Source: Rhynchobatus australiae
Taxonomy: Eukaryota
DNA length: 64,000 bases
Direction: 5' to 3'
Assembly (NCBI GenBank): GCA_034780895.1
Contig: JAUZTB010000107.1
Span: 33,580,790-33,644,789, forward strand
Below, in pieces: positions 7,586 to 55,800 of this stretch (positions are counted from its first letter, which is position 1; each line of letters begins with the position of its first letter). A model generated the notes under the pieces. It had not been told where the DNA came from and did no database searches. It was given only the letters and a program-made list of their open reading frames with translations. A program made the position numbers and the translations under genes.

Positions 7586-8367
7586 AGTCAATTGTTTGCT
7601 AAAAGAATTCTAGTTTATTTTTCACAAAGAAAAATGTGTTAATTCCTGCTTTGTAGTTTTGTCTATTGACAATCAGCTCTAGCTCATGCAAAGTTAATCT
7701 ATCAGCAGCAATGTACTGAGATCTGAACTATAAACATTTTTATTAAAAATAATTAATGCTGCAGATCTAATGTCATATTGTTCCCACTTCCTGTTTTCTA
7801 AACAAATTTGAGAATGAGCATTCGTTGAAAACAATTTGTTTTTTCCTATGCCAATTTCATCGTTTTGTATGCCCAACCTGCACCTAAAAATTAATATTCT
7901 AAGGAGGTCCACATGTGTATGCTTAAGTGGAATTTTAGAAGTGTACTCTGAATATTTCAACTGGTTCATATATAGCAATGGCTTTGAAGAAACATTTTTT
8001 TAATGCTACCTCTGTCCTATTTATCTGCTTTGCAAAGGATTGCTTAAATTATCATTTAAGACATTTACATAAGCAAAACATAAAGTATTGTTATCATTTT
8101 TTTTTGCTAACTTGGAGAGCTGACTTCTCTTTTCCTCCCACAGATCTCTCTGGGAACAAAATGTTGTCCCAGTGTTTGAACTTACTTTGGAATCTTGGTA
8201 AGTGCATAACTGATTTGGACACAGGAATCAAACAATAATTCCATCCCCTCAGGTTTTAAATAAGTTTGATTCAACAAATGCATTGCAAAACATGTTACTA
8301 GAATACATGTTTGTGTTCTTGATTCCTGTCTGAGCCAGGATTAAAGATTATGTCCTGATGGGCAGCT

Positions 8368-22110: not shown

Positions 22111-25100
22111 AGTTATTTATTTTTTCTTTGAGTCTTTGTGTCACTTATTGCCACAGTTTAGCAGTATGGCAGGAGATGGGATTGATGGCACTGTCTCCTG
22201 TGCCTCAACAGCATTAAGAGGAACTTGTGATTTTGTTTGTGAGGTTGTGGAATTTCATTCACTGGAGGCCTTTTGTGATCCATCAGCATTGAAGGGAGAG
22301 GGTATAATTGCACTGGAATGGTGCCTGACTGTGATATTTTAGGTAAGTTGTCGAGGTCTGACAACTTCATGGAAAAATTCTTTGGATGGCTTTGGGAGGC
22401 GAAGCTGGAGTAGCTGGTAATTCACTTCAGCTGACAAGAGTGATCCAAAGTAACTCCAACCCTAGGCTTTCGAGAGGTGCTGAAGTTTTCATGTAAATAC
22501 AGTAATGGTGCTACTCAGAGACACCAAAGACAATTTCATTGTTTTAAGTTTAAATATGTTATGAGGGAAGGTGTTTTTTCTTTCCTATCCAATTATGTTA
22601 AAACCATACTTTGAACCTATACTTGATATGCTGAGAGAGAAATAATGGTACCAAGTACTTTAAGTAACTTGATTGGACTGCCTCATTTGTAAGAAATATG
22701 CAGATGAAATTACAATTAATATATTGTAAAGTAGCATATTAGCCTATCAGCTGGGATAAACTTGCATTGCGCTGAAACAACTTTAACACAGCAGAGAAGC
22801 AGCTGCATGAAAAAGCGATATAAAAATGGCAGTACAAGAAACAGTGATCAGTAACAGGAAGCATAAAGAAAGATCACACCAAACTTAGCATTTTGATAAA
22901 ATCTGCAGATCTCCTGTGATGTTGCACATGGTAATTTTGAGAATATGGTCATTATTTTAAATCTTTTACTTTAGTTTTGCTGCTTCTGTCCATCTTTTTT
23001 TGCTAGCTCTCTTCAAAATCTGTATCTCTAGCCATTCCATACCCCTCTATTTTTCTGTCATCTTTTTCCCCTTGAACAACCCAATTCATTTTAAAAATTA
23101 TTTCATCTTTGTCACTTTAACTATACCCTGTTACCCAATCCTCATTCTGTTTCTTTCCTTCTCCTGAACTCCTAAAACCCTGTGCCACCAATTCCTCCAG
23201 AATGGCTTTCGATCTTTCAACTTTCTATTGGGTACAGGGAGAGGAAGATTGTAAGGTGGCAAAAACACCATGACCAGGATTTTACAGAAGACTTTTGAAG
23301 TGAGGGCTAGAAAAATAAACAGATCTAGGAGATGAGAGCAGTGGGAAAACTGTGTGTGCATTTGGGTGGGTTGAGAGCTCCAATGTAGTCAAGGTAAATT
23401 AATTTCCCCTATTCACCAGGAATGTAGGAAAGCTTTCTGCAGAGTTATCTGAGAAGTATCAATCAATTAAAATATGTATTTCCAACTCTTGCACTATGAC
23501 AACCTCCAGAGAAAATACACACAAGACTAGTAGTTCTACTCAAATGCATTCTCATTGGTGTGGACAGTGGCATAAAACCAAATGAAGCAGGGAAATTACA
23601 TGGAAATAAAAAGACAACCAAACCTCTACTTTATAGTAGTGTAGTTGAGGACAAATTGGTGTGAGAGAAATATCATCTGGCTCTTTGACTTTTCTCTCTT
23701 GAATAAGTTCACTGCTTGTCCTTTAGTCAATACTTTTATCACACTTCCACAGAATTATAATACTCATCTATTGTCTGTGCCAGAAGGCAGCTGAGTATGG
23801 CACCAAACCAGGGAAGATAAACAAGCAACTTGTCCGGGTCTCTACTGAAAAGCAATGAACACATAATAAACAGACTCCTGGGTCAGGCTGTCCTTAAAAT
23901 CCCTAAAAATCTTTCATTCATACCGAGTGGAGGAAGGTGGCCCAAATACAAACTGCCAACTCCCTCAACACAGAACTGCAAAACAGCATGTATAAAAGCT
24001 CCACACTCTGTGTAAAACAGTCAAGATTGTACCACTGTGTCCCTCCTGTTTTTGCCAACTAAAAGCACATCTCCTCTTAAAACATAATTTACACAACCAA
24101 CCCTTCCCAAAACCATCGGAATTCCACAACCTAGGATCCCCTTCTCCGTTCAGGGCTAGAAATGGTAGTTTTTTTTTGCTACTTCAAATATCAACAAAAT
24201 CAGATTTTAAGTAACCCGATTATATGGCAGGGATTGCCTCAGCATATCTCCAGGGGTTGGGGATAATTGGCAGCTCCAAACTGGGCAAAGAAATATATTC
24301 AGCGACTTTAAGTCTAATTCTTGTTATTCTGCTGCAGACCAGGTAGAAATGTACACACAAAGGCTTCCTGAAGTATTTAGTATCATGACTAAACTTAATA
24401 TTACACATACTGTTCCAAGTTCCATGTTCAAAGAACTGCACTTTATTACTTTTGTGCACTGAAAGCTGCAAATTCCTTATCAAACAGTGGAACTTGCAAT
24501 GAAGATATTTTTTTCTAATACTACGTTTTTGATTTTCATAAAGCTGATTAGCAGACTATAACCTAAACCACACAACTTAATAGAATGATTGTTCAGAGGT
24601 CATTTGCAATGAGCTGATTAAAGAAACAAAGTGGTTCTGTCCTTTGCACCATCTCATTTGATATTGTGAAGTGTGAAGGATTGTTTATGTAAATTGACCT
24701 TGATGATACACAAGAGGAACACCTTAGGGGAACCCCAAGTTTGTAACAGCTGCATTTTCCCATAAGTGGTTTTCATTATAGAATATTCCTTTATCTATAA
24801 AACAATATATTAAAATAATGAGTAAATTGCAACAAGTAAATTACATCAGAAATCCCTGTGTTAGGCTCTGTCCAGTGCAAAATGTATCATAAGGTATCAA
24901 TATTTGCATGCATTATCTATTATACTCATCAACATTGCTGTGATGGGGATTTGAATATTAAATGTTGCTTGAACACATGCTGTTAAAACAATATCTACTA
25001 CATTGCGTAAAGAGGGCATAGAGTGAAATATAACTGAGGAAATTGACATGACCCTGAATGCATTTGCAACCTCACGATAAACTTCTGTTCTAGAACAATC

Positions 25101-26620: not shown

Positions 26621-27064
26621 ATAGCCACAATCAAGATTAAACAGTTTCCTATTTGTGCAGTAGGTTAGCTATCCTCCAGAAGAAACTTGCTGGAGATGAG
26701 GTACAACAGAACAACAAAAAAGAGTAAAAGTATGTGCTGGAGTAAAGACATTGCCCTGCTTAGCACCAGTCTGCAATGAGATTGGATCTGCTGTGGACCA
26801 GTGGTTAAGATCACAGCTCACATGCCATCATGTATCAGGCATAAAATGAAAATGAATTTTTGTGGGCAAACAAATGTGGGAAGTTGCTCCACAGTCCCTT
26901 TTNNNNNNNNNNAAAAAGGTCATGTTTCTCTGCATTTCTCTGACACCTTCAATCTAGAACCAAGGTCACCCCAGCTTCAGTCATTTAGCTGCAGTATGTG
27001 GACAATGCCAGTAGATGGCTGAGTTCCAAGTCATTGTCAACTCTTTAACTGAAACATACTAAAG

Positions 27065-40569: not shown

Positions 40570-40900
40570 GCTGTAGTTCCTAATTACCTTCTTCTTCACT
40601 CTTGATCCTGTGGCTCTCATAATTAGTTACCTGGGGCTGCAATCCAATTTGAAGTGATGACAAGAAAGTGATCCATGAAAAGTAATAAGTTAAATCCAAT
40701 TTCAGTCTGCCTCTAATTAAATGCACATGGAACTAATGACTCAACCCTACCATTTCAGTGATAATGTTAATTAGCTAGGTGGGAGTCTCTTTTGCAGTAT
40801 TCTATGTGTAAACCAAGTAATAGGGGGAAGGGATGTCCATAATTACACGTGACATTTTTTGGAAAATTGTCAGCAATTTGCACGTTTATGATTAGTCAAA
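40570..40900. promoter_or_regulatory. Homeobox-site cluster, CNE-like
   Basis: Five TAATTA palindromes (40581, 40620, 40714, 40768, 40840) and an AP-1 site TGACTCA (40737-40743) in about 270 bp. Confidence 0.45.
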
Positions 40901-43294: not shown

Positions 43295-43384
43295 CTGTAG
43301 GGTTGGTTGCTTGTCATTTCCCTTGGGAGACTTCAACCCACTAGCTTGTTGCTGTAGCAGAAGCTGCCGTGCAACTTGAAGAGC
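43295..43384 (-). CDS. FOXP1: Internal coding exon (90 nt, phase 0/0) of forkhead box protein P1, N-terminal Q-rich region
   Basis: Minus strand reads ttctctttttatgtag|GCT CTT CAA GTT GCA CGG CAG CTT CTG CTA CAG CAA CAA GCT AGT GGG TTG AAG TCT CCC AAG GGA AAT GAC AAG CAA CCA ACC CTA CAG|gtaagt = [30 protein letters not shown]. Human FOXP1 has [34 protein letters not shown] and FOXP2 has [31 protein letters not shown] at position 4 and NDKQPxLQ favour FOXP1. Confidence 0.93.
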
Positions 43385-44704
43385 CTACATAAAAAGAGAA
43401 TAACATTCACCTTTTAACCATAAATACACCCAATGGGACAGTTTACTACTCCATAATACAAAGAAGAATAACAGCAAATAGTGTTGCATACCATTTGTTT
43501 TATCATCAAAAACTACAAGTTAATAACATTTAAACAGATAAACCAAATTTATTTCCATTGATGGCAGTGCCACATATAATTCTGCAGCATTAAATTCTGC
43601 AAGTCTCTTTAAAGCTAACAGTGCTTTTATTGAACATAAATGTGCATCAACAAAAAAAAATCTGCATTTCAATGTCTCTTTTTCCACTAATATTTCAGGC
43701 TATATTGATGGATGGTTGTCATTTGATATGAAATTTTCAAAGGGAACAATACATTATGAAAAGCTGGCTAGCACGTTCCAGAACAGCTAAGCCAAAGAAT
43801 CCCTTGTGGCTGTGAGTGGGAGAAAAATAAAATGGGACATTGCAAAATGTTCTACAAACTAAAAGAAAAACAAAAATTGTAAGAACAATCCTAATACTAT
43901 GAAAAGTTAGATCCAGATAAAATTATTGGCCAAATCATATGTGTTCACAAATACAATGCACTCTGGGGTACATCAGAAATGAATTAAAAAAATTATGACA
44001 TAATATCAAAACCAAAATCATACCCTAGATTGTTGGCTTTAAAAGAGTTCAGATGCACTAAAACATAGACTGGCTGCTGGAAAGTAAAACCCGGCACAGT
44101 TGTTTTATGCCCAAGCTACTCCCTTTTCCTTCTGATAAATAATCAAACAGAGACTGTCCAGAATAAACAAAACCAATAAGCTGGGAAATTTGATGGCCAT
44201 CAGAACTATGAAGATACCAACAGAAAGCAACTCATAGTTCCCACAGTGACTTAGTTCCACACCTACATCAGCATAACATCTGAGTAAATAAATTCAGTCA
44301 CTCTTTCCATTCCCCTCCCCCATGTGATTACTCCTACTAGAAAACAGTTCAGATCAGTTTCAAATATCGGACCACTGTTAAGCACAAAAGACAATTTTAA
44401 TGCAGTTGGATTTTATTTTGCCAATATGTTTTGTGCATGCTTTAACAGACTGCATATTCTTTGTTACCATCTGTTATTTGACTCTATTTATCATGACTTT
44501 TTAGTTATACACTCATATACAACACAAATTGATCAAATATAAACTAATTCTTCGTAACATTTTCCTTACTCCTCAGCATGACCTAATTTACCACCAATTT
44601 AAGGTTAAATCGTAACATTTGCATCTTTCGACAACTCCCTTATTCAGCTCATCAGTATTGTTTCATGTGATAGATTTAATTCTGGATATGACACAAACAA
44701 TTAC

Positions 44705-44900
44705 AGAGAAAGTGGGGAAGTTTACCGAAAGAGCTTAGTGCCTCTAAATTTCCGTCGGCTTGCAGTTGTTCTTTGGCTGTTGCTGTAGAGCGGGGGTTGA
44801 AGAATGGTGTAAAGATGTTGAATAAACAGGAAGTGCTGTGCAGCTGAAACACACTGAAATGAAAATATACTGGAAGGCTGCCCTTTCTGGCCAGCTAAAA
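44705..44900 (-). other. FOXP1: Probable homolog of the FOXP1 alternative first exon/internal promoter, non-coding here
   Basis: Three minus-strand frames give FQCV, HSTSCLF and HHSSTPALQQQPKNNCKPTEI*...TFS|gtaatt. These are colinear with the remembered human FOXP1 isoform N-terminus MFQCVFSSSVLQPHSTSCLFKHLFYHSATPASQKQPEPIYSKKTEIQRQTVRAPFAKLFIFS, which splices to ALQVARQ. A GT donor sits at the equivalent point (44703-44704). Confidence 0.7.
44821..44835 (+). promoter_or_regulatory. FOX:ETS composite motif AATAAACAGGAAGTG
   Basis: Forkhead core TAAACA overlaps ETS core CAGGAAGT. E-box CAGCTG at 44841-44846 and a further forkhead site ATAAACAA at 44945-44952. Confidence 0.6.
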
Positions 44901-45752
44901 AGGCCCGTTTCCACAGTAGCAATACCCACATAAGTAAATGAGAAATAAACAAAAAAGTACAATACCCATCTTGACTTTGCTCTCAAATTTATCCTTGATT
45001 CTACTCATGATAATGCTCCCTTCTGTCAGGTGTGTGCCTCTATACAAACATCTTCCAGCATAGAAAACTAGTGCTGCTTTGCAACACTCCAAGGCTAGAC
45101 AGCTTGTAAAAAGATGAGCTGCCACACAAACGTTTACAATATAACTGGAACAAAATTCCTTTAGAAATCTTAGTTCTGTTGTGGCAACTGCCTGCTGGCT
45201 CACAGGGACTGATTTGTTATTTTGCACAGTCTCAGCCTGTCTGTCATCCTGGGTGCTAATGCTCCAGTAAAATAACTCATTGGGAGCTGTCATAGGGATG
45301 TTTACACAAGACTATTCCTTTCTTCATACAAGGAAATTTTTTTCTGGAACTCATCTTCTTTTGATCTCACATTCAAAGCAACACCACCGTGATAGACATA
45401 CAAGTCTTAAAGCAAATCCAGACACCAGAGATAAACTACCAAAGGCTGACAGACAGCAGCAACTAAAGCTCACAAATGTGGGTAACAGCATGTTGTCTGA
45501 GTATGTATTATGACAAACCCAAGACGTATATTAGGTGGAGTTGACTGTTCGTATATTAATGTTCAGAAAGGCAGGATCATATGACCAATATGCTGCTTAG
45601 TAAAGCACAGGGAGCATAAGTCATAGTGACTATATCACAATATTAGAAGTTTTTATGGTTTTAAACTGATAATCTACAAAAACTGGATTCTGAAAATATT
45701 AAAGAGAGGTTGCAGTGCACATGTGCCAAAATGTAAATATTAGAGACAACTA

Positions 45753-53199: not shown

Positions 53200-55800
53200 T
53201 TTTATATAGGACAGCTGGTACAATTTGTTGTTCCTGACTATTATATTTCCTTATGCAGTTAATTTATCTTGAAAATCAATGGATGGAAACACTCAGGCAA
53301 GTCTGACATGACCCCAAGACATTACTGCTGAATGATAACTTTGTTGTTTTTGAACTGGATGATTAAACCATTCCCAACTTGTTTCATGGTGATCAGTTTC
53401 TTTCAACTCACATGTAAAATCACAGATACTAACTTCTGACAATTATGCTTTTGCTCTCTGAATCTGCTAATACCATCTCTTCCTCTTTTTCAAATGCTAC
53501 TTCACTGAAAACTTTTGACAAAATTCACTTAATTCTTCTAGGTGGAAAAACAATTGTTTCCAATGTATTCTTTTCAACATCTATCACATATACCTATCCA
53601 GAGATATTCTGTTCAAACTGGTCACAGCAAACAAAATTTCTAAGAGCTCCATCTCCATTTGTACATATTTCATCTCTGCTTCTGTTACAACCCTTATTCC
53701 ACAGGCAAATCATTCTCCAATGTGCATCATTGTTATCCAAATCCAATTTGAGGAGCATTAGATTATAAAGTTACCTCTTCTGTAAGATAATAATGTCTAT
53801 TAATTAGTGACCACTACCTTGTCTCTTCAGCACCACTTTGTGGGATTTTCCCCAGAACCACTCTATATCTTTCCATTCTAAATGTCTGAGGGACTTTACC
53901 ATAGCTGATAGATTAGGGAAAATTGCACATGTCCCAAAAAACCATTGGACAAGCCCTACATCTGTCAGTACTGGCATTTCCAAAAGTGCTTCAACTTCTG
54001 CTGGATCTGGACAAAATCCTTGGTCCATGGCAACAGCTCCAATGAAAGCAACATTTTGTTTCTATGACTTTATTTAGCACTCGTCAATGATCACTGCACT
54101 TTTGAAGTAATCATGATCTTAAATCACTTATTCTAATTTTTCTCTAAATCCTAGAGCCACAAATTCATCAGCAATTGATTGAAGTCCTTTCACCAATTCA
54201 TGTATTTTCCTTTGAAAAAGTTCAATCATAAATGTGACCCTGCATTACCTATGCTTCACACGGTACTCTCAAACGGTACATGGAAAGGAGTTACATATGA
54301 CAATTAGCCATCTAAACTTATGTACCAAAAGTCATTTCAAACATCATATAGGTGTGTGGCTCCATCTGCTATTGATAATAAAGCTCTGTTAGTAGGTTTA
54401 TTCAATATTTTAGGATATAAACATGTGTTGTGATTGATTGTTCTTAGATATTGCCACCACTGAATTGATCCAAGCTGTCAGTACTATGACTGGAACTAGA
54501 ATATCAAGTCTAAGACATCTAGCAGTTCGTTCTGCCTACTTTCTCAGCCATTAGCAACCTATGAGGTGCAAGTTGATGCTAAATTATTCTACTGCTTAAA
54601 TATTCTCCTTTAAGTTGTCAAATTCCATCACATTACAGCAGAGTGTACTTCTGCATTAAACATTCTTTAGTTACTGCCTTATAGCCAATTAACATATATA
54701 CCCCGATTCCAGTGGATGGTGCTCTATTATTATTGAATTATATACACTGTACATGCCTTTTGGCCCAGCAAATCCTAAAGTCACATTATCTACTTGTTTT
54801 CATTCAAACTTACATTTCTTGTTTATTACCATACTGGACTAACAGTTACACTTGCCCTNNNNNNNNNNNNNNNNNNNNNNNNNNNNNNNNNNNNNNNNNN
54901 NNNNNNNNNNNNNNNNNNNNNNNNNNNNNNNNNNNNNNNNNNNNNNNNNNNNNNNNNNCCCTTAAACAGGAAGGCAAGATTTACCAATAAGCTATAAGCA
55001 TAGATTCAAGTGGTTCCACTTTTATAAGTTTAAAATCAATGGATTTTTTCTCACATAAGTGATCCAGAATTATATTTCATTGGGCTCCTTTACTTATTGG
55101 AAATCTCAGATGCCACCTGACTCTAACTTAAGTGTAGCACACAACTCATCATGAAAACAAGCACTCATCTCACAGACAACAAAAACTATTGCTCTTAGCT
55201 CCTCATCAATTCTTCAGCCTGGGTGTTTACATGTTTGTTCCCATAGCAATTCCTTGCAAAATACTTGCTCCTTCTGTGCCCATTATACACTAAACTAAAA
55301 ACAGGGTGTAATTTCTCCAGTGGAACTCATTTTCTCCCATAGTTTCAACACTTGTGTCCTTGAATTTTATTTTAGCCTTAGTTCGTAGCTTTTCTCTGTC
55401 ATCCCCAGAGGTTTCTTTGAGTTTACATGCTGTTCACTTTCTGTCCTGTTGACTCACTAAATTACTTAATGTTGAATCTCCATGCTCTCTGTTTTCTCTG
55501 AGATCAGGTTATTTCTCAAAGCAATCTTTCTCACAGCTTTGAGTCTACAATTCCAAACACAAGTCTGTCTCTAAGTATTTCTCCCAGCATTTCTATATGA
55601 AACTCACAACCTTCCATGAGTTTTCACAAAGTTGATCTGTATTGATCATATGATTCACCAGCATCTTGTCTTCTCCTGTTATACTTATGCCTCTCAAAGG
55701 GAATGTCTCTTCACGATACTCAGAAAATTTCCTCAACACAGGGACAATCTTGCATTTATCCTCCTCTTAGGTCCAGTCCGTCCAAGTGGAATAAACTTCA
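53200..55800 (-). mobile_element. Gypsy/Ty3 LTR retrotransposon gag-pol fossil
   Basis: Gag IPFERHKYNRRRQDAGESYDQYRSTL*KLMEGCEF...EILRDRLVFGI (~55510-55710). Decayed protease RFPISKGAQ*NII (55069-55107). RT IADEF and GFCPDPAEVEALLEMP...FPNLSAMVKSLRHLEWKDIEWFWG. LTRs not identified. Confidence 0.85.

Follow-up and report, generated by a model that had tools for sequence, protein, structure and literature searches.

Activated B cells and lymphoma show prominent short FOXP1 isoforms that derive from internal promoters (PMC7145990, PMC3887110), and alternate 5′ exons and short FOXP1 proteins are reportedly conserved in a mouse lymphoma line (PMC7145990). Human exon 6b was common in 5′RACE and is common to the 573-residue and 76 kDa isoforms (PMC3887110), with further related material in PMC5394978, PMC11171328, and bioRxiv 2023.02.02.526696. 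Both exon 6b and short FOXP1 are already known in human. FOXP genes also harbor 61 to 66 ultraconserved elements (PMC11276968) and paralogous conserved elements (PMC3595034), and a FOX:ETS endothelial enhancer, FOXP1+138, lies 138 kb from the gene start (PMC10952167, PMC5295818, PMC11896612).

Here we describe an element in a 64-kb stretch of Rhynchobatus australiae DNA (the whole stretch analyzed, hereafter the window). It shares with human FOXP1 exon 6b (Ensembl FOXP1-009 and -011; the leader of Q9H334-3) its position just 5′ of exon 7, its sequence, and a GT at the donor position, and it differs in lacking both an ATG and an open frame, in its weaker donor, and in being known here from DNA alone. 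Like FOX:ETS composite elements, it contains an exact match to a composite 13-mer, the FOXO1:ELK3 reference sequence (PMC6949242), within FOXP1, and this putative site is a sequence match only. Unlike FOX:ETS enhancers, the fish site would fall within a first exon, and its placental counterpart within codons. Given the position of exon 6b, it is likely another element than FOXP1+138. Coding extensions can arise de novo over regulatory DNA, and codons can then be in dual use. As in such extensions, the peptide considered here would be read from older noncoding sequence, with residues fixed by constraint at the DNA level; unlike de novo genes, it is an alternative N terminus of an old gene and not a new gene, and the leader is known as annotated sequence. 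With conserved noncoding elements of FOXP genes (PMC11276968, PMC3595034), the element has in common an intronic place in a developmental transcription factor gene, alignability between cartilaginous fish and mammal, and indels that ignore codons. It differs from them in overlapping an annotated mammalian coding exon and in its inferred identity of about 86% over 66 determinable bases.

Our literature search, with most subscription journals outside its coverage, found no report on a fish exon 6b orthologue, on a marsupial frame difference, or on a FOX:ETS site there, and it found no paper naming a driver of the exon 6b promoter. Brown 2016 reportedly may already discuss exon 6b conservation.

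Orthology to the mammalian alternative leader exon

The sole constitutive FOXP1 coding exon in the window is exon 7, the second coding exon, whose 30 residues are identical to those of FOXP1 from Callorhinchus milii and Pristis pectinata and unlike those of FOXP2 (Table 1). The element, 216 bases long, lies about 1.3 kb upstream, on the same strand as FOXP1 and in the intron 5′ of exon 7.

Table 1. Coordinates of features in the window
Feature	Position	Strand	Basis or remark
Conserved element, orthologue of the mammalian FOXP1 alternative leader exon (likely exon 6b), noncoding here	44705..44920	-	Leader alignments
GCC at the therian start codon position	44876..44878	-	All 4 leaders align there
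TAG in the frame of exon 7	44744..44746	-	Alignment, frame check
TAA in the frame of exon 7	44735..44737	-	Alignment, frame check
69-codon ORF, out-of-frame ATG at 44931, ending at 44722 before the donor	44722..44931	-	ORF reading
Putative overlapping forkhead and ETS composite motif, best-conserved core	44822..44834	+	Motif scan
Second ETS-like core	44749..44754	-	Inside block matched by placental (TEI) and marsupial (DGNL) leaders; motif count at background
GT donor at the mammalian position	44699..44704	-	Weak: no -1 G, no +5 G
Putative alternative donor, 21 bases upstream	44720..44725	-	-1 G
Horn shark FOXP1 model isoform X6 leader match	43949..44021	-	One frameshift; ends at GT
FOXP1 exon 7	43295..43384	-	Intact, strong donor
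Intact 11-codon alternative exon, intron 7	40588..40620	-	Match to C. milii isoform X9 leader; ATG and GT

In 21 of 286 proteins, exon 7 is preceded by a leader with FS as its last residues, and 20 of these are from named therian mammals, including the human entry that served as the source of the human leader (P0132, listed as UniProt Q9H334-3, human FOXP1 isoform 3). In a frameshift-aware alignment the human leader scored 92 at positions 44875 to 44747, and the next best score was 47 (256 bins, both strands). For all nine leader-type queries, the observed score was unreached by 150 shuffles each (z = 5.6 to 19.0). The earlier note on this DNA had made a significant alignment to the human exon a test of its claim, and such an alignment was found for the leader that this exon encodes. 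Detectable homology extends from 44920 to 44705; of the interval 44705 to 44960 proposed earlier, the portion beyond 44920, where the out-of-frame ATG lies, falls outside it. With the end left unforced, the alignment stopped precisely at 44705, next to the GT, for two of the three placental leaders; the human leader overran this position, and the marsupial leader stopped one base short. From these alignments, we identify the element as orthologous to the exon from which the 62-residue alternative leader of placentals is read, and we hold this orthology, together with the conservation at the DNA level considered below, with high confidence. Judged by its position and product size, the leader exon is likely exon 6b.

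Pattern scans of metagenomes for vertebrate host DNA gave no direct vertebrate DNA match with a 23-base pattern, and the 87 matches obtained with a 17-base pattern were all due to chance, with a longest alignment of 33 bases. An HMMER search with a 72-residue stop-free frame against 1.84 billion representatives returned a single hit (E = 4.4e-4), an unrelated repeat protein.

Other alternative 5′ exons are represented nearby. The 11-codon exon in intron 7 has 9 of 11 residues in common with the C. milii isoform X9 leader, which joins exon 8, and we take it to be the likely positional counterpart of human 7b/7c-type starts. The match to the 23-residue horn shark X6 leader scored 46, compared with a maximum of 33 in 60 shuffles; with its ATG present and a weak GT donor, it represents another 5′ exon of this intron that is broken here, 0.7 kb further downstream than the element. 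No match in the window was obtained for the remaining shark leaders, of 11 and 15 residues, or for canonical exon 6. In models from shark, paddlefish, and sheep (P0006-P0009, P0190, P0117, and P0246), a single M precedes exon 7, which implies an upstream exon ending in ATG; no unique place for this exon was found in the window, where there are 10 candidate ATG-GT sites. A strong donor-like site with 8 of 9 consensus bases is present at 43410 (minus strand), 26 bases 5′ of the exon 7 acceptor.

A broken reading frame

On the minus strand, leader-like pieces are readable as HSTSCLF (44840-44820), HSSTPALQQQP (44806-44774), TEI (44755-44747), and FS (44710-44705, followed by GT). As the earlier note had described, they are spread over three frames, with a TAG and a TAA before the donor. 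One further piece that it listed, FQCV, proved to be an off-register look-alike at about 44859, the true counterpart reading FQYIF. The absence of an ATG at the start-equivalent position, also remarked on earlier, is borne out, as all three bases of the start codon differ (GCC versus ATG). Three single-base shifts occur at about 44860, 44819, and 44808, and they cancel, so that 174 bases, a multiple of three, separate the start-equivalent position from the donor; the net lengths in marsupials and placentals, 183 and 186 bases, are multiples of three as well. A coding long alternative leader is absent, with no open frame in the element and, for all three candidate donors, no ATG in frame with exon 7. 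The evidence for ATG depletion is mixed: only 0.7% of 2,828 segments share the block's lack of a sense ATG, but one-third of the block's own dinucleotide shuffles lack one too. Should transcription begin above its ATG, the 69-codon ORF would be an upstream ORF.

The shared multiple of three could be taken as the trace of an exon that was ancestrally coding, with selection acting on an open frame into exon 7 and not on residues, and whose start was lost and stops gained in the lineage of this fish. Marsupials and placentals also share the ATG position, the first three residues, and the last residue, and the direction of the ATG change is not polarizable with one outgroup. We nevertheless consider this history improbable. 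The fish length amounts to a one-in-three coincidence, and the annotated mammalian leaders are in frame by the annotator's selection; three start bases differ and two stops are present; several mammalian models have a broken frame or start; and the leader occurs in none of 128 non-therian FOXP1 proteins (0 of 79 from cartilaginous fish and 0 of 49 others, in a set with at most 15 members per cluster and almost no birds). The gappy assembly, with 22 N runs, might raise the suspicion that the breaks are errors of assembly and that this fish in fact has an intact ORF, but this would require six separate lesions, the spacing near 44808 is common to the marsupial model, and two nearby coding exons are intact, which makes such errors an exceedingly improbable explanation.

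Conservation of the DNA and not of the peptide

The leader in the marsupial Dromiciops models P0149 and P0150 has the same start and end as the human leader, yet only 17 of 62 residues are identical, compared with 96 of the next 100 residues in the placental-marsupial pair. The window in turn matches these leaders about equally in different frames, with identities of 27/45 (placental), 26/45 (marsupial), and 34/61 (Galemys). When window bases were compared with mammalian bases inferred from two frames, 18 of 20 first, 19 of 23 second, and 20 of 23 third codon positions matched, as did 15 of 17 synonymous third sites; the comparison covered 23 of the first 27 codons (the 4 at frameshifts were left out), and the third-position bases came from one shifted gene model (Galemys), possibly with a sequence error of its own. 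The element thus displays conservation without a codon pattern in this small sample of 23 codons. For the human exon 7 primer, compared with the window by eye, 3 of 6 synonymous third sites match versus the 15 of 17 in the element, a number too small to count. In simulations, alternative-frame identity of at least 55% arose in 0 of 3,000 saturated-coding runs but in 39% of half-saturated runs, and the simulation is thus partly discriminating, excluding fully saturated coding evolution only.

At about 44808, the marsupial spacing equals that of the window and placentals have an extra base, and there is likely a second placental-type extra base near 44860. Because these extra bases are placental only, the middle of the placental peptide is likely no older than the placentals. 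Within the group comprising P0047 and P0125-P0128, the leader frame is shifted inside the exon in the Galemys (desman) model, the bowhead model, and one further ORF, and two further ORFs have L instead of the start M; these breaks may be real losses or sequence errors.

The marsupial frame difference, the lack of codon-position bias, and the forkhead-ETS motif described below support the view that the element has been kept at the DNA level and that the mammalian peptide overlies it. The part of the earlier proposal by which this peptide overlies conserved DNA is thereby strengthened; for the part by which the element would be an exon or promoter in this species, the matching donor is weak.

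A forkhead-ETS composite motif and other signals

The composite motif occurs once in the 64 kb, with 0.02 matches expected (2 of 100 shuffles), under a strict pattern that was chosen after the site was seen, whereas a looser FOX:ETS pattern was not significant (5 matches versus 2.42 expected; 9 of 100 shuffles). In FOXP1 introns there are four further FOX:ETS-type matches of the loose kind, at 7787-7796, 22852-22861, 26645-26654, and 54964-54973, a number within chance. The weight of the motif appears to lie in its coinciding with the best-conserved block. Residues of the motif site are present in one of three frames in all 27 leader-type proteins (23, 3, and 1), which are not all independent, and the conservation of the motif across species was inferred from these peptides in three frames and not from DNA. 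The CpG ratio of the 400-base segment 44401-44800, over the 3′ half of the element, is the highest of 523, with only 7 CpG. No TATA match was found, and a scan for structured RNA gave 0 Rfam matches and a fold z score of +1.56, no better than shuffles.

Donor sites and exon use

At the mammalian donor position, the window has a GT that 72% of its 3,533 GT sites equal or surpass in U1 pairing, and the +5 position, G in mammals, is T. Donors that lack both the -1 G and the +5 G are rare among used donors. The candidate donor 21 bases upstream, or the end of the horn shark-type exon at 43949, might serve instead.

A weak donor and the lack of a TATA match would suit an intronic enhancer that serves only as such in this species, promoter or exon use having arisen or survived only in other lineages. 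FOXP1 introns are rich in conserved noncoding enhancers (PMC11276968, PMC3595034), and FOX:ETS motifs are a mark of endothelial enhancers, including one in FOXP1 (PMC10952167, PMC5295818, PMC11896612). This reading does not account for homology that stops exactly at the mammalian donor with the GT kept, and the second candidate donor with its -1 G and the nearby 5′ exon in a shark model also speak against it; we regard it as rather unlikely. Two mammalian models, P0055 and P0128, place an upstream exon in front of the leader exon and join the two, so that the leader exon is possibly also an internal exon in mammals, and the window has a pyrimidine run and an AG at 44896-44895, as might be expected of a cassette (poison-type) exon spliced internally, after upstream exons and before exon 7. 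The mammalian junction region is unaligned to the window, however, with local alignments beginning at 44920; the AG of the window is at a different place, and the weak donor counts here too, so that a cassette exon is very improbable.

If the element is spliced to exon 7 as a first exon, translation would start at exon 8 methionines, because there is no ATG in the reading frame of exon 7. These methionines are the annotated start in 11 of the 79 cartilaginous fish FOXP1 proteins. The expectation in the earlier note that transcripts from the element would yield N-truncated FOXP1 is correct in this conditional sense, for all three candidate donors. Such a product is no peculiarity of this species, as the 573-residue exon 6b product is already annotated in human (PMC3887110).

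Proposed origin and significance of the element

The best reading of the element, in our view, is that it would be an ancient internal promoter or enhancer, with the placental peptide as a later overlay. In its specific form, we consider it probable, if far from assured, that a noncoding orthologue has been kept around the forkhead-ETS motif, likely as an internal promoter, and that splicing of its transcripts would lead to an N-truncated FOXP1. The composite site would be bound jointly by an ETS factor and a forkhead factor, which may be FOXP1 itself, and this joint binding would drive transcription about 1.3 kb 5′ of exon 7. Feedback by FOXP1 would be possible because FOXP1 is a forkhead protein (PF00250). 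In therian mammals, an ATG at the 5′ end of the block would provide the start, and one or two placental-private single-base insertions would set the frame of the 62-residue leader; since the frame would be set in this way, residues such as TSCL would simply be a reading of the binding site.

We speculate further, and only tentatively, that all jawed vertebrates make short FOXP1 from a forkhead-ETS promoter that predates the divergence of cartilaginous fish from bony fish, with FOXP1 feedback, and that marsupials and placentals later came to read two different leaders from it. The conservation of the placental leader above 90% might then reflect binding sites and not protein function.

Overall, the element is real, ancient, and noncoding; its human orthologue is a known alternative exon, and its core is plausibly regulatory. 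The result is modest in that it adds one more ancient element to the dozens already known in this gene. The forkhead-ETS site, 13 bases long and kept between cartilaginous fish and mammals, would constitute one small mutation target. For annotation, the comparison carries a warning, as the placental leader is more than 90% conserved yet lies in other frames in the marsupial, so that amino acid effect scores may mislead. If the promoter reading is true across jawed vertebrates, variants in the human leader would have to be read as regulatory.
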